A DNA stretch of 32,000 nt from Desulfocapsa sulfexigens DSM 10523 (lineage in GTDB: Bacteria; Desulfobacterota; Desulfobulbia; Desulfobulbales; Desulfocapsaceae). Made by a program: the position numbers and the translations under genes. Below are positions 1,613 to 17,715 of the stretch, in pieces. Location of the stretch: contig NC_020304.1 of NCBI RefSeq assembly GCF_000341395.1, positions 210,001 through 242,000 on the forward strand. The letters are read 5' to 3'. The notes beneath the pieces are model-generated. The model saw only the letters and a program-made list of their open reading frames with translations, was not told the DNA's origin and did not search any database. Numbering within the stretch: position 1 is the first letter of the stretch; every line of letters starts with the position of its first letter.

Positions 1613-1692
1613 CAGCCGTTACAGGCTCAACAACACCCCCGTATTAATAATTTGACTGCATACCAAGCGCAGCCATTTTTGTTCGTCATCAG

Positions 1693-1741
1693 AATCCCCC
1701 TGCCCATATCAGATATGATCTGCACAGGGGGATTTTCTTTT
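1693..1741 (+). terminator. Rho-independent terminator of the GGDEF gene
   Basis: A 10-bp perfect stem, aatccccctg (1693-1702) / cagggggatt (1725-1734), with an inner catatc/gatatg helix. It is followed by ttttcttt. Confidence 0.75.
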
Positions 1742-1794
1742 ATTCCATCCTGATTCTCCAGCCATTTGTCCGACTAGATACTCAAAAGGACGGA

Positions 1795-3339
1795 CTAGAA
1801 GCGGACATCCATCAGAAAATAGTAGTTATCAAGGGTTGCATCAGACTCAATGGGGGCACCAATATGCTGTCCACTCCCGCTGTAATCGTAATCAATATGG
1901 ATATATCCTGCTCTGAAGAACAGGTACCTGTTTATCGGCTGGATGTAATAGAGATCATAGACACTGCCCCTGGTTGCCAGTTTGTTGAAAAGGTCGGGCG
2001 TCCCCATGGTCATGCTAAACCAGTATTCAGACCCTTTGTTGTACTCAAAACCAATTTTAGGCATATTGAGAGCTTCAATCGGCATGGTATAACGTAAACC
2101 GGTATAAAAGGAATACCCCGAGTGATTCGACTGTCCGTCAGATGATAAGAGTCCGAATGCCCCCAAAGGCGCATTTCCATTTGCCTTACTCCGATTACCA
2201 CCATAGGAAAAGAAAAGGTCCAGTCCAGTGGCTGCGATATCAGAGGCCTGCAAGTGTATCCCCCAGAGATCCATATCCCCAAGATCCACATTGGCCATGC
2301 CGGTTTCATAGAGGTTGGGGCCAGTAAGGTAAAACGGAAGATCCCACACTTTGGCATAACTTAACACCGCAAGACTGTTTTTTAAGCCTGGAATCTTTGT
2401 TTCAAAAAAGGTGGCTGCCATGGTTGAATCGCCGGCCTCACCGTCATCAAAGAAAGGAAAAGCTGAGCCAGTATTATTGTCATCGTCTGAGTGGTAGGCC
2501 TTTCCGTAGGCAAAACGCCACCCGGCCTCCTTGAGACCGGTATAACGATCAAGACCAAAGGTCACTACAATTCCATCATTTTCACCATCAAAAAGCAGGG
2601 CAGGATATGTTGATTGACGCAGCCTGTTTTCTCTGTACTCAAAAGGAGGTCCTTCAGTGGACGGATGGCGGCCAACGGTAATTGCAAGAGGAATTGGGAA
2701 TCCTGAAGGAATCCAGTCAACATACGCTCTGTCTACCCAGAGGTTACTGCTTCCAGGGCGATGACCACGATTAAAATCATTCAGCATATATGAAGCGCTG
2801 GCATCATCGCTGTCTCCCCAGTTTTTATACATCGCCAGGCGACCATGAAATTGAAGGGAGTCTGAAATTTCTGCCTCCATGTTGATGCGAAAGCGGTTTG
2901 TCCAGTTGTTGGAGTCACTCTCCTTGTCATGATAAGTCATTGCTGCACCCATGGCCTGCGTCGGGCTCATACCCGCCATCACGTTCTGCTGAAAACCCGT
3001 CATGTCAATGGTGTTATAATTTTTTGCCCTATAATTATCAGCTCTTACCCGAAGTTCTGCACCAAAATTCATTTTATTCTGGACACTTTTGGTCTCAAGA
3101 TCATCAATAGTGTTGTAAATAATATTGATGTCTTCTGTTACTTTTTCATAATGGGCTTCTGGAACGTTCACGGCCCGCTGAGGAGTTGATTCAAGAATTT
3201 CAACGCGCCGCTGCAGGGCATCCAGTCTGTTCATTATCGCCTTATAGTCTTCTGCCGGGATGGTTACAGTTTCACCCTCAGCATATGCACTGCCAGCCAT
3301 AGTCAGCATCATGCCAACACTTACCAGAGTCTTCTTCAT
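1795..3339 (-). CDS. Outer-membrane beta-barrel protein with N-terminal coiled-coil segment (DUF3373-like by recollection)
   Basis: Start trimmed to the internal ATG at 3339, which is preceded by AGGAGG (cagcAGGAGGacagagATG). Signal peptide MKKTLVSVGMMLTMAGSAYA. Heptad-like segment IPAEDYKAIMNRLDALQRRVEILE. About 470 aa are Gly/aromatic-rich with an alternating pattern. The C-terminus is ...NYYFLMDVRF, a terminal-Phe OMP beta-signal. Confidence 0.75.
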   Translation of the reverse strand: MKKTLVSVGMMLTMAGSAYAEGETVTIPAEDYKAIMNRLDALQRRVEILESTPQRAVNVPEAHYEKVTEDINIIYNTIDDLETKSVQNKMNFGAELRVRADNYRAKNYNTIDMTGFQQNVMAGMSPTQAMGAAMTYHDKESDSNNWTNRFRINMEAEISDSLQFHGRLAMYKNWGDSDDASASYMLNDFNRGHRPGSSNLWVDRAYVDWIPSGFPIPLAITVGRHPSTEGPPFEYRENRLRQSTYPALLFDGENDGIVVTFGLDRYTGLKEAGWRFAYGKAYHSDDDNNTGSAFPFFDDGEAGDSTMAATFFETKIPGLKNSLAVLSYAKVWDLPFYLTGPNLYETGMANVDLGDMDLWGIHLQASDIAATGLDLFFSYGGNRSKANGNAPLGAFGLLSSDGQSNHSGYSFYTGLRYTMPIEALNMPKIGFEYNKGSEYWFSMTMGTPDLFNKLATRGSVYDLYYIQPINRYLFFRAGYIHIDYDYSGSGQHIGAPIESDATLDNYYFLMDVRF

Positions 3340-3398
3340 CTCTGTCCTCCTGCTGTTCACTTTAGCGAAAATCGGATTACCCGCAATTTTGTTCATCA

Positions 3399-3719
3399 TT
3401 ATTTGCCTTGTTTGGGAATAATCGCAGCAACAGGATGATCACTACCTGCTGCATGATTCTGTAAAAACACAACGATCTGATTCATTTCATCAGCATTGAT
3501 TGTTCCATTAAGATCTCCGGGGTGCCTATCTCGTTTAAAATACTTAGCCCAGACAACACCAGCTTTAGCTGCCGGGTTGACAGGTTCTGCCCCTCCTCCC
3601 TTCTTGTGACACGAACCGCATCTTTCGAGAAATATATCAAGGTCACTGGCAACTACCATGGAAGACAGGAGCAAAAAGAAACACGCTGTCACTGCAGTAT
3701 ATATAAACTTTTCGTTCAA
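3399..3719 (-). CDS. Small periplasmic monohaem c-type cytochrome (copy A)
   Basis: TTG start 8 nt after GGAGG. Signal peptide FIYTAVTACFFLLLSSMVVA. A single CxxCH (CGSCH). Paralogous to the adjacent upstream gene. Confidence 0.8.
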   Translation of the reverse strand: MNEKFIYTAVTACFFLLLSSMVVASDLDIFLERCGSCHKKGGGAEPVNPAAKAGVVWAKYFKRDRHPGDLNGTINADEMNQIVVFLQNHAAGSDHPVAAIIPKQGK

Positions 3720-3740
3720 TCAACGTGCCTCCGGCTTTGA

Positions 3741-4049
3741 TTATTTTGGAATTGCTGCAGCCACCGGGTGATCACTATCCGCGGCATGCTCCTGGAGGAA
3801 TCCAAGAATAGTCATCATTTCATCATTGCTGATCCGAACTGAAAGGTCAACGGGATGTCGTCCCCGCTTAAAATACTTACTCCAGACGACTCCAGCTTTG
3901 TCAGCAGGATTAACCGGAGCAGCTTCACCACCTTTTTTATGACATACGCCACATTTCTGGACAAAGACTGTTGCGGCATCATCGGCAAATGCAGGGGTGA
4001 GCATCACCAGTGACAACACGATACAGCCAAAAAGAATTTGAAACCTCAT
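3741..4049 (-). CDS. Small periplasmic monohaem c-type cytochrome (copy B)
   Basis: Start trimmed to the ATG at 4049, 6 nt after AGGAGG. Signal peptide MRFQILFGCIVLSLVMLTPAFA. A single CxxCH (CGVCH). By hand alignment, 52 of 78 mature positions are identical to copy A. Confidence 0.8.
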   Translation of the reverse strand: MRFQILFGCIVLSLVMLTPAFADDAATVFVQKCGVCHKKGGEAAPVNPADKAGVVWSKYFKRGRHPVDLSVRISNDEMMTILGFLQEHAADSDHPVAAAIPK

Positions 4050-4474
4050 CCATGTCCTCCTTTCCCTTATTGAAACTTGAGCTGCCGGTAAAAAGTTTCT
4101 GTTTTGAGGGCTTATTACTTTCTCCAATCCAAATACCGGGACAGGGGTGAAACAACCTGGTAAGTGACAAGAATTTACTTTCCATTATAAAAGTACCAAG
4201 AAGAAAAACACACTCCAATCGCTTAAAACACCCTATAATACTCCCATTCAATCGGCAAGATCAAAAAGTTGGATTCCCAAAAATCCTGTAAAACAATCCA
4301 TATAGTATGTAAAATCAAAGATGCGCAAAGCGACAATGATGCGATCACCTTGCCTATTCGTATATAAAATGATACGACTATCCCATGCAAAAGAGTCAAT
4401 GTATATGGCGAAATAGCAACTGCCTGTTTTTGTATTATGACGCAAGTGCATTTGGAATTACGAGAAAATAGACT

Positions 4475-6007
4475 ATGAAGCCATCACAGCATGGTATCTG
4501 GATTCTACCTGAAGACTATGTACCTTCAGACCTAAAGCATTCCTTTTCCGATACGTTTATTGTGCGAACCGGTTCTGTGAAAAAAAGTAGCCGGATCTGG
4601 TATGACACCTTTGACTGGCGCCTTTTTCGCAAAAAACAGAGGCTGACCAGTGACGGGAGCAACTGGGTCCTTGACGATTTTCAGGGACGGCAACTTGCTG
4701 TTTTGGAAAGTCCACGGAAGTCATTTCGTTTTTCCTGGCAGTTTCCCGATTCTCCACTTCGACAATCCCTTGAAAAAACATTGGATGTCCGGGGAGTTCT
4801 CCAAATTTGTGTTGAAGAGCTTGAGTCTTATTCGTTAAACCTGTGTAATACAGATGAAAATATTGTTGTCTTTCTGGATATTCAGCAATCAACGAACAGG
4901 CTGACTCGAAGCAAGAGGAGTGTCGCGCATATTAAGGAGATGCGCGGCTGTGGCAAAAGGTTCAAAAGAGCTGTCAAAATTCTTGAAAGCTCAGGTGCAG
5001 TGCAAGTAAGCAGCATTGCTGACCTATTCCCTTTTGTTCTTGAAGGAAGTGGCCGTAAGGCCCTGGATTATAATTCCGGCTATGCTGTCCCCCTAGCACC
5101 TGAGCTAAGGAGTATTGACGCGATTCGAAAGATTCATGCATTCTTACTGGAATGTATGCGTCGGAATGAAGAAGGGGTTATTACTGACCTTGATTCGGAA
5201 TTCCTTCATGATCTGCGGGTGGCGGTACGAAGAACTCGTTCTGCCTTGACCCTGTTCAAGGGGGTACTTGCAACTGATATAACGGATCGTTTCAAAGAGG
5301 ATTTTCACTATATTGGCCAAATTACCGGATCGGTTCGAGACCTGGATGTCTATCTGCTCAATGAGAAGCAGTACAAGGATAGTGTACCTGAGCGTTTGCA
5401 ACAGGGATTGACCTATTTTTTTGATAACCTTACAGAGAGCAGAAAAGAAGAACAACGAAAGCTTGTCAGTTCTATACGTAGCAAACGGTATCAACAGATC
5501 CTGACAGACTGGTCTCAACTGCTTGACAAAGAGAGTCTCCTGCCTGCAGCGGAAAAGGGTGATATACCCATTGCTGTCCTTGCTGGAAAAATAATCCATA
5601 AGCGGTTTCGCAGAGTCTTACAGGATGGTCGCAATATCCATCGAGGTACACCGGATATTGCACTGCATAAACTGCGTATCCAGTGCAAGAAACTCCGTTA
5701 CTGCCTCGAATTTCTCGCCCCTCTCTATGGGCCAAAACAGATGAAACAGTTTATTCGACAGCTCAAGATGTTGCAGAATAATCTTGGTGATTTTAATGAT
5801 CTCTCTGTACAGCAGCAGATACTTGCTAAGTATCTGTCAACAATCAAACCCGGTACCAGGAAGTCCGTGGAATTGGCGGCATCCATAGGTGGACTCATGA
5901 CTAGCCTTGCTGCACAGCATCAGTGGACAAGGGATCATTTCGAGAAGACGTTTACCCACTTCTGTTGCCCCAAAAATATGGCGCTTTATCAAAAGATTTT
6001 TGATTGA
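4475..6007 (+). CDS. CYTH-like / CHAD domain protein
   Basis: The C-terminal half has the helical His/Arg-rich CHAD signature (LHDLRVAVRRTRSALTLF, LHKLRIQCKKLRYCLEF). The N-terminal ~200 aa resemble the CYTH fold (IWYDTFDWRLFRKKQRL), but I cannot find the N-terminal ExExK motif. Confidence 0.75.
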   Translation: MKPSQHGIWILPEDYVPSDLKHSFSDTFIVRTGSVKKSSRIWYDTFDWRLFRKKQRLTSDGSNWVLDDFQGRQLAVLESPRKSFRFSWQFPDSPLRQSLEKTLDVRGVLQICVEELESYSLNLCNTDENIVVFLDIQQSTNRLTRSKRSVAHIKEMRGCGKRFKRAVKILESSGAVQVSSIADLFPFVLEGSGRKALDYNSGYAVPLAPELRSIDAIRKIHAFLLECMRRNEEGVITDLDSEFLHDLRVAVRRTRSALTLFKGVLATDITDRFKEDFHYIGQITGSVRDLDVYLLNEKQYKDSVPERLQQGLTYFFDNLTESRKEEQRKLVSSIRSKRYQQILTDWSQLLDKESLLPAAEKGDIPIAVLAGKIIHKRFRRVLQDGRNIHRGTPDIALHKLRIQCKKLRYCLEFLAPLYGPKQMKQFIRQLKMLQNNLGDFNDLSVQQQILAKYLSTIKPGTRKSVELAASIGGLMTSLAAQHQWTRDHFEKTFTHFCCPKNMALYQKIFD

Positions 6008-6237: not shown

Positions 6238-8067
6238 ATGATTCTACGACCCTTATTTCAGGCACTCATTCTGTCATGTCTCTCAGTTCTATACTGTAGC
6301 ATAACCATTGCGAATGAAAGAGCAGTTACTCCACAGGTACTTTCAAGACCAACGAACACGACCGTAGAGTCAAGCCATAGTCAGTCAAAAGATTTCAGGA
6401 AAGGTCCGCCTAACAAGCTTCAACCAATAAGTACATTACCCGAAAAGCTCACTCCCATGGGGTATTGTTGTAAAAATGGTAAAATCACACGGTCAACAAC
6501 AGATGTATGCAAAAAAGAACATGGAACATTCTACCGTACAGAAAAAGCCGCTACAGAACAATGCAATGGCTACTGCTGTAGCAATTTCACCATTGTCAAG
6601 ACAAGCCAACAAAAATGCAAAGCCACTCAGGGGAAATTTTTTCCGGGAAAACAGCAGGCAGTTCAGTTTTGTGAGCACCAGAAAGGTTACTGTAGCGCCG
6701 GTGGAGATATTCTGCGACTGACTCAGAATCAGTGCGAAAAACAGAAGGGCTTATTTTTCACCAACTATTCTCTTGCAAGACAAAACATTTTAAAAATAAA
6801 GCAACAAGCTCTTGTCCAAAAGAAATCCGGGCAAGATCTCCAATCGACACAATCGCCTCAACAACTGAGTGGTCTGCGCACTACACTGTCTGACCTTTAC
6901 CTGTCTCAGAGAAAGTGGTCCGCACAACCAAAATTTGGTGATAAAATTGGCTACTCCCCACTACTCAACTTGACGGTGAAAAACCAAGGGACGGCAACTT
7001 CCTCCCAAACAAACATACAAATAGTCGCGGAGCAGGCTCCTGGGGGCGTGACTGCTTCTGACACCAACATCTTACAGATGTCAATACAGATCCCTCCACT
7101 ACATCCCGGCAAGACCTTCTCCTTTGCCTGGCCTCAGCCCTCGGAAGAAAAGTGGAGAAAAGGCAACTATCGCATTCGCCTCTCTATTCCAGTTGATCCC
7201 GGTGGAGAATCTGATGCGACAAATAACGAGGTTATCATATATTTCACATGTCAATCAAACACTCCAATGTTCCAAGCAACAGCGCACCCAGGGCTTTCAA
7301 CAAGTATAAACGCACCGCTTATTAGCAGCAGTAAACCAGATCTCACTGTCACTCTTCAAGCTCCAGATACAATACTCTATCACGAATTCCTCTACACTTT
7401 TCGAGGCCAAGTAAGCAACATTGGTACTGCTATCGCGCCCAAGTCCGAGGTGTCATTAGGACTACTTGGCTCGGGAGTGATACCTGTAGACAGCCAGAAT
7501 ATTCCTGCATTAGGCACTACTATGGGTGTATTACCAACTAGCATTTTTTTAGAGCTTAAGGGCACGATCTCCTCAAGTTGCAACGGTTCAAGACAACTGT
7601 TCCTACAGGTAGATCCCGCCAATTTAATAGATGAGGCAAACGAAGACAACAATATCATAGCTTTTGATGTCGAGTGTCGAAAACCACAGTATCTCAGTTA
7701 CGATCTCGGTCTATTCGAAAAGGGATCACAGGAGGCATATGGTCTCAAACATATCGGATACACACATGAGCCTGTCAATTATTCCATAAAAGTCTATAAC
7801 TTCCGCAACAATTCAGTATCTCCGGAAACACAACTTACGGTATCCTGTGATGTAGAATCTGACCAAACTGTTGTAATCAAACCGATCAGTGCCTCAGACA
7901 GCACGATCAACTACCGTGAGTTCCATTTCACAAATAGTTGGGCAACAAACGGTAACTACCAATGTCAGGCAAAATTATCTGATGTAGCAGGATTCACGGA
8001 TTCAGATACAAGTAACAACCAAATGTCTTTTTCAGTCCAGATTACAGGCCATTTACCGGGACAATAG
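6238..8067 (+). CDS. Secreted protein: three Cys-rich repeats followed by three CARDB-like domains
   Basis: GGAGG lies 6 nt before the ATG. Signal peptide MILRPLFQALILSCLSVLYCSITIA. CARDB hallmarks recur three times: VKNQGTATS...VDPGGESDATNNEV; PDLTVT...VSNIGTA...VDPANLIDEANEDNN; and VYNFRNNS...FTDSDTSNNQM. Confidence 0.8.
   Translation: MILRPLFQALILSCLSVLYCSITIANERAVTPQVLSRPTNTTVESSHSQSKDFRKGPPNKLQPISTLPEKLTPMGYCCKNGKITRSTTDVCKKEHGTFYRTEKAATEQCNGYCCSNFTIVKTSQQKCKATQGKFFPGKQQAVQFCEHQKGYCSAGGDILRLTQNQCEKQKGLFFTNYSLARQNILKIKQQALVQKKSGQDLQSTQSPQQLSGLRTTLSDLYLSQRKWSAQPKFGDKIGYSPLLNLTVKNQGTATSSQTNIQIVAEQAPGGVTASDTNILQMSIQIPPLHPGKTFSFAWPQPSEEKWRKGNYRIRLSIPVDPGGESDATNNEVIIYFTCQSNTPMFQATAHPGLSTSINAPLISSSKPDLTVTLQAPDTILYHEFLYTFRGQVSNIGTAIAPKSEVSLGLLGSGVIPVDSQNIPALGTTMGVLPTSIFLELKGTISSSCNGSRQLFLQVDPANLIDEANEDNNIIAFDVECRKPQYLSYDLGLFEKGSQEAYGLKHIGYTHEPVNYSIKVYNFRNNSVSPETQLTVSCDVESDQTVVIKPISASDSTINYREFHFTNSWATNGNYQCQAKLSDVAGFTDSDTSNNQMSFSVQITGHLPGQ
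6460..6762 (+). repeat. Three tandem Cys-rich peptide repeats inside the CARDB protein
   Basis: GYCCKNGKITRSTTDVCKKEHGTFY / GYCCSNFTIVKTSQQKCKATQGKFF / GYCSAGGDILRLTQNQCEKQKGLFF. The first two units carry a further Cys (EQC, QFC) in the spacer. Confidence 0.7.
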
Positions 8068-8457: not shown

Positions 8458-9252
8458 CTAATCAAGAGAAAGAGAGATACCATCCAGACTTCCAGATGAT
8501 TTTTCTTTCTGAGGAGCAGGAGCTGCATCCAGTCCGTCAAGTTCCAAATCCAGGCTCAATTCATCCAGATCACTATTTTCTTCAACGATATCTCCGGGTG
8601 ACAAATCTATATCATCAAGAGACAACGACAGGTCATCATCGACAGTACTGGATCCGGAATTCAAGCCCAGATCCAAATCGAGGCCGTCCAGATCCAGATC
8701 TTCATCCAGACTCATTTCATCGTCCAGTGAAAGATCCATCCCGGATGAAACGGAAGCAACAGGGCCATCAGTCTCACCAGGCGGGGCAAGATCAGAGATA
8801 TCAGCTAATTCATCGGGGACAGCAAGTGTGGCGGGAGCAGCAGGTTCATCTTCTGAAAAATCAAAATCGTCACCGTCATCGAGATCAAAATCAAAGCCGT
8901 CTTCACTTTCTCCATCACTTTCAGGCTCAAGTAGAAAATCATTATCCGAATCCTGAGTGGCAAAAGCGGTTCCCTCTTCACTCTCATCTTCATCAACAAG
9001 AATATCCAGATCAGGATCAGAGAAGTCATAATCATCCTCTGCATAGTCTTCACCCATACTAATGGTTCCGCTGTCCTCGTCGACAGGATCAGGCTCCGGC
9101 GGTGAATTTTTGTCTGGAACTCTTAGGAAGGAGGGTGCTGCAGCATGATACGTTGTGCCTGCAACGCTAGTGCTCCCTGAAATATCTTTCTTACATTTCA
9201 GACAACTCTCCATATGATCAAATGAGATATAACCACACTTAGGACAACGCAT
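8458..9252 (-). CDS. Zinc-ribbon protein with very long acidic low-complexity tail
   Basis: Start trimmed to MRCPKCGYISFDHMESCLKCKKDISG (CxxC...CxxC). A stretch of roughly 190 residues without any Lys/Arg/His follows. It is dominated by D/E/S/L with recurring LDLD/DLSLD motifs. Confidence 0.65.
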   Translation of the reverse strand: MRCPKCGYISFDHMESCLKCKKDISGSTSVAGTTYHAAAPSFLRVPDKNSPPEPDPVDEDSGTISMGEDYAEDDYDFSDPDLDILVDEDESEEGTAFATQDSDNDFLLEPESDGESEDGFDFDLDDGDDFDFSEDEPAAPATLAVPDELADISDLAPPGETDGPVASVSSGMDLSLDDEMSLDEDLDLDGLDLDLGLNSGSSTVDDDLSLSLDDIDLSPGDIVEENSDLDELSLDLELDGLDAAPAPQKEKSSGSLDGISLSLD

Positions 9253-9408
9253 ATTTGGACACCTTCGCTGGATTTTATTTACACTTTTTCTGTATCGAGA
9301 CAAAAAATAATTATCTTCGCGTACTAGATCTTGTCATTATGGCACATCTTTCCCCAAAGAATCAAGAAATTTTCTATTATACAGGGCTGTTGCTTCAGAG
9401 AAAAGGGA

Positions 9409-14331: not shown

Positions 14332-15297
14332 ATGATTAGAAAAGTATTACCCCTGTTTTTTGCAGCCCTGCTTATGGTATGCAGCGGCCAGGCCATGGCC
14401 GGTGGCAGTCAAAACTATCCCAATGGCGCAGAAGCCTTTCTGGCAGGAGCAGTTCCTCCGCCCGGCTTCTACTTTCTTGACTACATGTATTACTACAATG
14501 CAGACACCATGAAAGATGACAACGGCGATGATATTGCCGCATTCGATGACGTGTCAGTGGTTGCCAACGTGTTCCGTTTTTTATGGATGAGCGACAAACA
14601 GATCCTTGGCGGAAATTATGGTATGCATGCCTTCCTGCCCATTCTCAGTACCGACCTCAGTTTTAATGCTCCGGTTGGCCCCGAATCTACAAATTCCTAC
14701 GATGACACCAATGTTCCCTATGTCATTTTCAGTCCTTTCATTCTTTCCTGGCATCTCCAGGAGGGGAAACTCCATCTCGTAACCTCTCTTGCCGATATCT
14801 ATATCCCAACCGGACAGGATGAGGGCAACATGGCATCCGTGGGTAAAAATTTCTGGACCATTGAACCGGTATTTGGCATCACCTATATGACAAATGGCTG
14901 GGAATTTTCAGGAAAATTCATGTATGACTTCAGCACCAGTCAGGACAACTACGCCACTGTTTACGGTTTCAATGTTGATCGCGATCCAGGCCAGGAATTT
15001 CATTTTGATTACTCAGCATCCTATGAAGTCAGCCCAGGCCTTCGTCTTGGCCTGAACGGTTACTACTATACCCAGACAACTGATGATTCATACGATATAG
15101 ACAGTTCTCTTCCCGCTCCCGTTCAAGCTCTGCTGCAGGAAGACGAAGGAAATCGTAGTGAGGTTTTTGCTGCGGGTCCAGGAATCTGGTACAATCATAA
15201 GAACATGTTTTTCTCTCTGAGAAATCAGTGGGAGATGGCTGCGAAAAACAAAACTGAAGGATATAACATCTGGGCAAAGTTCACCTATGCCTTTTAG
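14332..15297 (+). CDS. Outer-membrane transporter of the putative MetA-pathway phenol-degradation (transporter) family
   Basis: GGAGG RBS. Signal peptide MIRKVLPLFFAALLMVCSGQAMA. N-terminal NYPNGAE...PPPGFY motif and C-terminal ...KFTYAF beta-signal. Confidence 0.75.
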   Translation: MIRKVLPLFFAALLMVCSGQAMAGGSQNYPNGAEAFLAGAVPPPGFYFLDYMYYYNADTMKDDNGDDIAAFDDVSVVANVFRFLWMSDKQILGGNYGMHAFLPILSTDLSFNAPVGPESTNSYDDTNVPYVIFSPFILSWHLQEGKLHLVTSLADIYIPTGQDEGNMASVGKNFWTIEPVFGITYMTNGWEFSGKFMYDFSTSQDNYATVYGFNVDRDPGQEFHFDYSASYEVSPGLRLGLNGYYYTQTTDDSYDIDSSLPAPVQALLQEDEGNRSEVFAAGPGIWYNHKNMFFSLRNQWEMAAKNKTEGYNIWAKFTYAF

Positions 15298-16604: not shown

Positions 16605-17715
16605 CTACTTGGCCCAGAGTAAATAGGCCTTAATAAACATATCCAGATTCCCATCAAGCACGGCATCCACGTTTCCCATCTCAACTTCTGTCCGATGGTC
16701 TTTAATCAGACGATAGGGCTGGAGCACGTAGGAGCGGATCTGACTTCCCCAGGAGATATCCTTCTTATCTCCATGCAGTCCCGCCTGCTGTTCCGCCTGC
16801 TTTTCCTTCTCCAGTTCATACAGGCGGGAAGCCAGCATTTTCATAGCCATATCCCTGTTTCTATGCTGGGAACGTTCATTTTGACACTGTACCACCACAC
16901 CACTGGGGATATGAGTGATGCGAATGGCAGAATCTGTTTTGTTAACATGCTGCCCGCCCGAGCCACTGGCCCGATAGGTGTCTACGCGCAGATCCTTCTC
17001 ATCGATATCGACGTCAATAGTATCGTCTAGCTCTGGCATAACCATAACCGAAGCAAAGGATGTATGACGTCTACCACTTGCATCAAAGGGTGAAATCCGG
17101 ACAAGACGATGGATACCAAGTTCCGAGCGCATATACCCGTATGCAAAACGTCCCTTGATTATAAAAGTCACACTCTTGGTGCCGGCCTCATCTCCCGCCA
17201 GTATATCCAAAATATCCGCCTTAAACCCTTTGGCTTCTGCCCAGCGAAGATACATCCGGAGCAAAATCCCAACCCAATCCTGAGCCTCGGTTCCTCCGGC
17301 TCCGGCATGAATCGAGATAATGGCATTGGAAGTATCGTGTTCACCGGAAAACATGCACTCGAGTTCTGCAACCTCAAGGGTTGTTTCCATATCGGGCAGA
17401 GACGCAGCCACTTCGTGCTCTGTATCGTAATCCTCTTCTTCAGCCGCCATTTCAAGGAGAAGGTCTGCCTCCTCGAGTAGAGCCCAGCGTCCCTCCCAAC
17501 CCTCTATCAGGTCCTGAAGTTTTCCAAGTTCCTTCTGAACCCTTTTAGCCGTATCAGCATCATCCCAAAACCCCGGCTGAAGGGTCTGCTGTTCCAAATT
17601 TTCAAGATCGTCCTTCCGTCGAGCTAAGTCAAAGATGCTCCTTCAAGGCCAGCATTCGACCTTTAAGATCCTGCAGTTTCTGTTTCGAAACCGCAGCTCC
17701 CGTTTCTGTTGACAT
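16605..17715 (-). CDS. prfB: Peptide chain release factor 2, expressed via programmed +1 frameshift
   Basis: The ORF-track piece (16605-17597) holds the RF2 body, including GGQ (SGSGGQHVNKTDSA) and SPF (RISPFDAS). The upstream frame ATG(17715) MSTETGAAVSKQKLQDLKGRMLALKEHL ends at CTT TGA C. A +1 shift continues as DLARRKDDLENLEQQTLQPGFWDD. Confidence 0.93.
17628..17643 (-). promoter_or_regulatory. RF2 autoregulatory +1 frameshift site
   Basis: Minus strand reads AAGGAG CAT CTT TGA C: an internal SD-like element 3 nt upstream of the slippery CTT followed by the in-frame UGA. Confidence 0.9.

Follow-up and report, generated by a model that had tools for sequence, protein, structure and literature searches.

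A small monohaem cytochrome gene kept next to a DUF3373/Omp50-family porin gene in Desulfobulbia and beyond: a candidate two-component outer-membrane redox module

Two small cytochromes and a porin in one operon

The window analysed here, a stretch of 32,000 nucleotides (nt) from Desulfocapsa sulfexigens DSM 10523 (NC_020304.1, positions 210,001 to 242,000), carries three co-directional genes on its minus strand, which encode two small monohaem cytochromes c (cytB, then cytA) and an outer-membrane porin of the Omp50/DUF3373 family. The spacers between them are exactly 21 nt and 59 nt, and each gene has its own Shine–Dalgarno (SD) site, GGAGG(A) at 5-8 nt from the start, and its own Sec-type signal peptide. 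The first gene, cytB (4049..3741), starts with ATG and encodes 102 amino acids (aa), with a signal peptide of ~22 aa (predicted cleavage between TPAFA and DD) and a mature part of ~80 aa; its SD site GGAGGA lies at 4060-4055, its CxxCH haem motif at 3953-3939 and the codon of an invariant distal histidine, His65, at 3857-3855. The second, cytA (3719..3399), begins 21 nt past the cytB stop with a TTG codon and encodes 106 aa, of which ~24 form the signal peptide (predicted cleavage between the residues MVVA and SD) and ~80 the mature protein, with the SD site GGAGG at 3732-3728 and the CxxCH at 3620-3606. The barrel gene (3339..1795, ATG, 514 aa, predicted cleavage between SAYA and EG) follows 59 nt past the cytA stop, behind the SD site GGAGGA at 3350-3345. 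A preliminary description of this layout, covering the gene orientation, both spacers, the SD sites, the signal peptides, the CxxCH motifs, the mature cytochromes of ~80 aa and the terminal phenylalanine of the barrel, agrees with the sequence throughout.

The two cytochromes are 69% identical to each other over 75 aa, and each protein contains one CxxCH. If class I is judged by a score over the curated cut-off of PF00034 or PF13442, both fall outside it: in Pfam they hit PF13442 alone, at 16.1 and 17.6 bits under a cut-off of 27, no NCBIfam model matched them, and searches of the PDB by sequence and by fold returned, around the CxxCH, weak similarity to cytochrome c6 or CcoP (Foldseek E = 0.28). 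They had been expected to lack a close family, and are best described, judging from their sequences, as a putative class-I-like family that has not been curated. An exhaustive profile search recovered 281 representatives (at 50% identity) with E ≤ 1e-3, 63 of them with E ≤ 1e-10; most of the 281 are monohaem proteins of 100-110 aa that have the motifs QW.RFF..N.H and HAADSDxP in common.

Among the distinct mature cytochrome sequences, the CxxCH and one distal histidine within an RxRH motif (His39 of the mature protein, His65 of cytB) are invariant (124/124). Some 34 of these 124 sequences have no methionine at all, which excludes His/Met ligation for the family, and 14 have no methionine and two histidines only. 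The simplest inference is therefore a predicted His/His ligation of the haem, and the cytochrome is probably low-spin. A single-chain AlphaFold2 model has three helices and an unstructured, conserved tail, the C-terminus of the family reading nearly always AADSDxPxAAxIPK.

In some proteins the cytochrome domain is part of a larger chain. It forms the extracytoplasmic C-terminal end of Ser/Thr-kinase-like or repeat proteins (P0412, P0419, P0433) and the N-terminus of a solute-binding-like protein (P0399), which suggests that it can serve as a sensor module. The conserved tail, which the model leaves unfolded, was considered as a porin-docking motif, an idea that was dropped because the same tail is kept in the kinase-fused domains; the tail more likely belongs to the haem domain itself.

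As had been predicted, the barrel matches Pfam DUF3373 (PF11853), with a score of 237.5 bits where the cut-off is 26.1 (E = 3.6e-70, residues 142-499); the DUF3373/Omp50 porin family comprises PF11853 and TCDB 1.B.60-1.B.62. A profile of 35 barrel homologues, when compared with the PDB, matched entries 10aw and 10dn ('50 kDa outer membrane protein') at E = 6.7e-65 from the neck through the last residue, with profile positions 62-504 aligned to residues 24-473 of 10aw_A. A homologue search names this protein as Campylobacter jejuni Omp50, alias 'outer membrane tyrosine kinase', so that one porin of the family has been characterised and its structure solved. The two Omp50 entries hold six chains, which suggests a trimer, and the barrel is probably a trimeric porin. 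In its original description Omp50 was reportedly cation-selective.

The barrel protein consists of a signal peptide (residues 1-20), a tip with the sequence TVTIPAEDY followed by two heptad helices (residues ~24-89; 3270-3073), and a beta-barrel (residues 90-514) that closes with a phenylalanine. The heptad runs are Y32-I35-L39-L42-V46-L49 and V67-I71-I74-I78-L81. An AlphaFold2 model with a predicted local distance difference test (pLDDT) score of 70.9 places helices at 29-51 and 62-89, ahead of ~16 strands, and a Foldseek search with this model ranked the porin OmpM1 first (8bys, E = 1.4e-14), followed by OmpF/OmpC and OprP. The modelled fold would be that of a stalked general porin of 16 strands, where an earlier prediction for the family gave 18 strands (PMC4827864). 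The signal peptide and the terminal F514 (C-terminus LMDVRF) are invariant among homologues, and conservation across the family peaks in an in-folded loop, GRxPxxxGP...RQSTYPAL. Omp50, at 31% alignment identity to the window barrel, has the loop, the heptad neck and the terminal phenylalanine as well. The coiled-coil neck to which the preliminary description had drawn attention is thus real, and it is a trait of the family rather than an adaptation to the cytochrome. The sole part specific to the Desulfobulbia clade is the N-terminal tip, TVT[IL]PAxDY. The nearest relatives of the window barrel are found in metagenome-assembled genomes (MAGs) of Desulfocapsa, at 78-83% barrel identity.

Conservation of the cytochrome–porin pairing

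We scanned one genome per species with the barrel profile and obtained 80 loci, all Desulfobulbia-type, from hosts that include Desulfocapsa, Desulfobulbaceae, Desulfurivibrionaceae, a Desulfobulbus propionicus MAG and Hydrosulfovibrio ferrireducens (L049), along with one Ca. Anaeroferrophillacea MAG. A cytochrome gene lies immediately upstream of the barrel gene, on the same strand, in all testable genome loci (75/75); in the remaining 5 of the 80, the barrel touches a contig end. The reverse scan, of metagenomes with the cytochrome profile, gave 66 loci, and the barrel gene is found just downstream in every one with room for it (61/61). Together the two scans amount to 136 locus observations, with some contigs in both, and to 90 distinct full-length pairs. 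The order of cytochrome then barrel is far beyond chance. The spacer between the two genes has a median of 42 nt (14-174, n = 123). When all flanking open reading frames (ORFs) were clustered, nothing else was conserved save a chemotaxis receptor gene. Two tandem cytochromes, as in the window, occur in just 8 loci; the duplication, which had been listed among the peculiarities of the locus, is therefore a minor and lineage-restricted side feature, and a single cytochrome with a single barrel is the ancestral unit.

Two side observations concern these loci. A gene for a methyl-accepting chemotaxis protein (HAMP and MCPsignal domains, no CxxCH) lies 1-170 nt past the barrel gene, on the same strand, in 33/80 genome loci (L015, L020, L030, L031, L033, L039, L048, L066 and L074 among them) and is absent at this position in the window; it hints at a link to taxis or sensing. 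One metagenome contig, L081 (JGI10211J34971_10000938), carries the same three-gene operon with a cytB 99% identical to the window copy, and probably comes from the same or a sister population.

The pairing extends to distant relatives. We examined the contigs of eight distant members of the exhaustive search and of two divergent members of the first homologue search; three contigs were too short to judge, and in every contig long enough a DUF3373 barrel follows the cytochrome (L148, L150, L153, L154, L155, L157 and the P0366 contig). L151 (2-1120) looks like tandem modules: a cytochrome there is preceded by the C-terminal end of one DUF3373 barrel and followed by a second barrel-like gene that opens with a signal peptide and a coiled coil. 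These distant barrels score 225-253 bits on the hidden Markov model (HMM) of the Desulfobulbia clade, against 222.6 bits for C. jejuni Omp50, and since they diverge to the level of Omp50 the association goes back as far as the family's deep splits. Two of the distant loci have further redox genes next to the pair. The order on the P0366 contig is COX2-COX1-COX3-COX4-SCO1-cytochrome-DUF3373, that is, a caa3-type oxidase operon and a SCO1/SenC gene on the same strand ahead of the pair, and that on L157 (1438-5141) is cytochrome, DUF3373 and then a 472-aa cytochrome with ~8 haem motifs. Starting from the barrel rather than the cytochrome, the one case outside the Desulfobulbia clade is C. jejuni: in the search for more distant DUF3373 barrels, Omp50 retrieved C. 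jejuni clusters only, tblastn against plasmids retrieved none, and a scan of viral contigs with family-wide DUF3373 patterns found none.

Conservation of the neighbourhood had been proposed as a check on a functional link drawn from a single operon. With the pair conserved in both directions and in distant members, the link no longer rests on one operon, and cytochrome and barrel very probably form a true functional unit.

C. jejuni Omp50 (Cj1170c) belongs to the same barrel family, down to the helical neck, the conserved loop and the terminal phenylalanine, to which the Desulfobulbia barrels add their tip. The gene upstream of omp50 encodes a prolyl isomerase, not a cytochrome. Directly downstream lies cj1169c (L147:4433-4660), whose product of 75 aa has a signal peptide and no CxxCH, whereas the small gene of the Desulfobulbia pair stands upstream of the barrel gene. 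In both systems the barrel gene is co-transcribed with, or in an operon with, the gene of a small signal-peptide protein; omp50 and cj1169c form an operon whose deletion lowers oxygen tolerance and chicken colonisation (PMC3694039). Cj1169c can be aligned to the wide cytochrome profile over the stretch between the P..K..W region and the AAD motif, with a 10-residue deletion of the distal-His loop and CASLM in place of CxxCH. The match to this wide family has an hhalign P of 6.5e-4 at a probability of 27% and a shuffle p of about 0.002; against the narrow cytochrome alignment hhalign was not significant, and with the core HMM the shuffle p was about 0.13. No PDB entry for Cj1169c was found. This weak similarity is a lead that Cj1169c may descend from the porin partner and have lost its haem. 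The combination that had been named as speaking against a functional link, a characterised porin family whose orthologues lack adjacent cytochromes, is thus found in the C. jejuni lineage and not in the family at large.

At its 3' end, the operon is followed on the minus strand by a structured untranslated region (UTR; 1653..1794) between the barrel stop and a convergent GGDEF gene. RNA folding gave -58.6 kcal/mol (z = -6.5 against shuffles), with a G+C-rich hairpin at ~1734-1692 and a terminator-like hairpin at 1675-1653, and the region is the probable end of the operon. At the other end, 425 nt (4050..4474) separate cytB from a divergent CHAD-domain gene (4475-6007, plus strand), and the operon promoter presumably sits there. 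One sigma-70-like match upstream of cytB, at 4264-4235 on the minus strand, indicates a placement only, and counts of promoter and terminator patterns around the operon were no better than in shuffles. The remaining window genes are housekeeping genes (valyl-tRNA synthetase, nadC, prfB, lnt, acetyl-CoA carboxylase), and the three genes are therefore a stand-alone operon.

Elsewhere in the window, prfB (17714..16605) has the classic programmed +1 frameshift site CTT TGA C at 17634-17628 on the minus strand, with an SD-like AGGAGC ahead of it, so that the listed prfB ORF starts late. A secreted protein of 609 aa with Cys-rich N-terminal repeats and CARDB domains is encoded at 6238-8067 (plus strand), and a protein of 281 aa without a family match, its N-terminal part zinc-ribbon-like (CxxC..CxxC) and its tail repetitive and highly acidic, at 8458-9303 (minus strand). 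The product of 14332-15297 (plus strand) belongs to another outer-membrane barrel family, PF13557 (MetA-pathway phenol-degradation-like transporter), and has no evident link to the operon.

Proposed mechanism and alternatives

How such a unit might work is less certain than that it is one. We tentatively favour, at somewhat less than an even chance, a dedicated two-component outer-membrane module in which the logic of Cyc2 would be split over two polypeptides and carried by a different porin family; this split version is proposed because Cyc2 is the closest working model. [quoted passage not shown] Such a module would not be a membrane-spanning haem wire: there is just one haem, and the porin has ~16 strands and a conserved loop that folds inwards. 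The redox role of the pair is an inference, and the pairing probably links traffic through the pore to redox chemistry.

One could extend this mechanism to DUF3373/Omp50 porins generally, each with a small periplasmic partner that was ancestrally a bis-His monohaem cytochrome, which would make the pair a widespread, split Cyc2-like redox gate that exchanges electrons with passing solutes or metals and, in some lineages, feeds oxidases or multihaem cytochromes, with Cj1169c as a haem-less relic. We regard this extension as doubtful.

Several results weigh against the split Cyc2-like module. A member of the family works as a porin in C. jejuni without an adjacent cytochrome, and no fusion of cytochrome and barrel was found among the best 150 of the 281 cytochrome representatives. 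Residue covariation (mutual information with average product correction) over the 90 distinct pairs, whose effective number of 36 is too small to be informative, gave no signal, its top pairs being scattered over the barrel with no outliers. Both single-chain AlphaFold2 models, of barrel and cytochrome, are of moderate confidence (pLDDT about 70). The fusions to kinase-like and solute-binding domains fit a sensor as well as an electron carrier. Furthermore, Desulfurivibrionaceae already have canonical Geobacter-type porin-cytochrome complexes for iron-oxide respiration (PMC12545173).

The alternative that survives best, although we consider it unlikely, is that the cytochrome is a redox-sensing or gating subunit, a bis-His haem protein that reports the periplasmic redox state or a ligand and alters the permeability of the porin or signals to a neighbouring receptor, instead of serving metabolic electron flow. 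It would account for the cytochrome domains on Ser/Thr-kinase-like and solute-binding-like proteins, for the chemotaxis gene directly after the barrel in 33/80 loci and for the effect of the omp50-cj1169c operon on oxygen tolerance (PMC3694039). Against it, the gene downstream of the window operon is a convergent GGDEF gene and not a chemotaxis receptor gene, the latter being missing from most loci. Moreover, we know of no gating mechanism in the DUF3373/Omp50 porin family, and the oxidase and multihaem contexts of the distant pairs fit electron transfer better.

Less probable still is that there is no direct coupling, the barrel being a major general porin and the cytochrome an abundant periplasmic carrier, co-transcribed for expression only. 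Omp50 is indeed a characterised general porin, Dissulfuribacter counts a DUF3373 protein among its most abundant ones (PMC13490349), and the neighbourhood in the window is of a housekeeping kind. Co-expression alone, however, leaves unexplained why adjacency holds in both directions in every testable locus, the cytochrome family adjoining a DUF3373 barrel each time, and why it is kept from 98% barrel identity down to Omp50-level divergence while all other neighbours change.

An improbable variant is metal handling, in which the porin admits Fe or Cu and the cytochrome changes its oxidation state for uptake or cofactor assembly, for example to supply an oxidase with Cu via SCO1. The pair that directly follows the cox operon and SCO1/SenC gene on the same strand would suit this role, as would the reported cation selectivity of Omp50, but the former is a single context, and most loci, the window included, have no metal-handling neighbours; metal handling is in any case a special case of the split Cyc2-like module.

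Very improbable, finally, is a true trans-outer-membrane conduit of the MtrAB/Pcc type, with the cytochrome inserted in the barrel and electrons passed to extracellular minerals or partners: the ~8-haem cytochrome right after the barrel in L157 and the iron-reducing and sulfur-disproportionating Desulfobulbia among the hosts, such as Hydrosulfovibrio ferrireducens, speak for such a conduit, but it gained no direct support, since a single haem cannot span the membrane, the ~16-strand model with the in-folded loop common to Omp50 departs from the 20-26 strands and 8-10 haems of known conduits (PMC8406198), fusions were not found among the best 150 representatives, and there is no extracellular cytochrome gene in the window or the 80 genome loci.

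The known electron routes across or at the outer membrane are large multihaem complexes or the fused Cyc2, and a conserved, very economical module of one small cytochrome and one porin would be a new kind of porin-cytochrome system. It is present throughout the Desulfobulbia, whose members include disproportionators of sulfur as well as bacteria that reduce iron or oxidise sulfide, and it also occurs in lineages far removed from them. If it truly handles electrons, it would be a candidate for redox exchanges in sediments that are so far unexplained; if the cytochrome senses or gates instead, this would be one of few porins to have a redox-responsive subunit of their own. Under either reading the prediction is directly testable in cultured hosts. 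The pairing also offers a functional handle on a large porin family filed as a domain of unknown function, whose sole studied member, Omp50, has puzzling oxygen-tolerance and colonisation phenotypes.

Comparison with known systems

In the multihaem conduits MtrAB/MtoAB/PioAB and in the Pcc system of Geobacter (OmaB-OmbB-OmcB), the gene of a periplasmic c-type cytochrome likewise adjoins that of an outer-membrane barrel. There, however, deca- or octahaem cytochromes are threaded through barrels of 20-26 strands and joined by extracellular cytochromes, whereas the pair described here has one haem and ~16 strands, and an extracellular multihaem cytochrome gene was found neither in the window nor among the conserved neighbours of the 80 genome loci.

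Each half of the pair has its own relatives. The best structural match of the barrel, OmpM1 of Veillonella parvula, is an outer-membrane attachment porin, and both proteins combine 16 strands with a periplasmic coiled-coil stalk. The OmpM stalk ends in a peptidoglycan-binding SLH domain, whereas the barrel has a short conserved peptide in that place, with just ~8 residues ahead of the first helix and no SLH match. The cytochromes resemble class I monohaem cytochromes c (c6, c551/c552, PsbV/c550) in being periplasmic, small and all-helical, with an N-terminal helix that ends in CxxCH. They differ in that they have no conserved methionine, an invariant distal histidine in RxRH and the conserved tail AADSDxPxAAxIPK, and all their matches to class I are below significance.

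The closest parallel is Cyc2, the iron oxidase of Zetaproteobacteria, Gallionellaceae and Acidithiobacillus, which likewise consists of one CxxCH unit and then a ~16-strand porin, in the same order. As proposed for Cyc2, its monohaem domain occupies the periplasmic mouth of the 16-strand porin, whose pore takes in the substrate (PMC8406198). Cyc2 is one polypeptide, whereas here the two parts are separate genes, each with a stop, an SD site and a signal peptide of its own; the cytochrome is a full three-helix domain of 80 aa with a predicted His/His ligation, and the barrel is of the Omp50/DUF3373 type with a coiled-coil neck, not OprO/P-like. The comparison is one of architecture and published description, and the hosts here are mostly anaerobic Desulfobulbia.

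In the literature searched, on DUF3373, cable-bacteria cytochromes and Desulfobulbaceae porin-cytochrome operons, we found no description of a cytochrome-DUF3373 pair, and the supplements of the D. alkaliphilus transcriptome paper contain no DUF3373 entry. The earlier statement that the locus maps to no described system therefore holds for the pair but not for the barrel, which belongs to the characterised Omp50 family. Regardless of mechanism, what was already known among these systems is the barrel family, and the novelty lies in the family of cytochromes and in their conserved linkage to the barrel.

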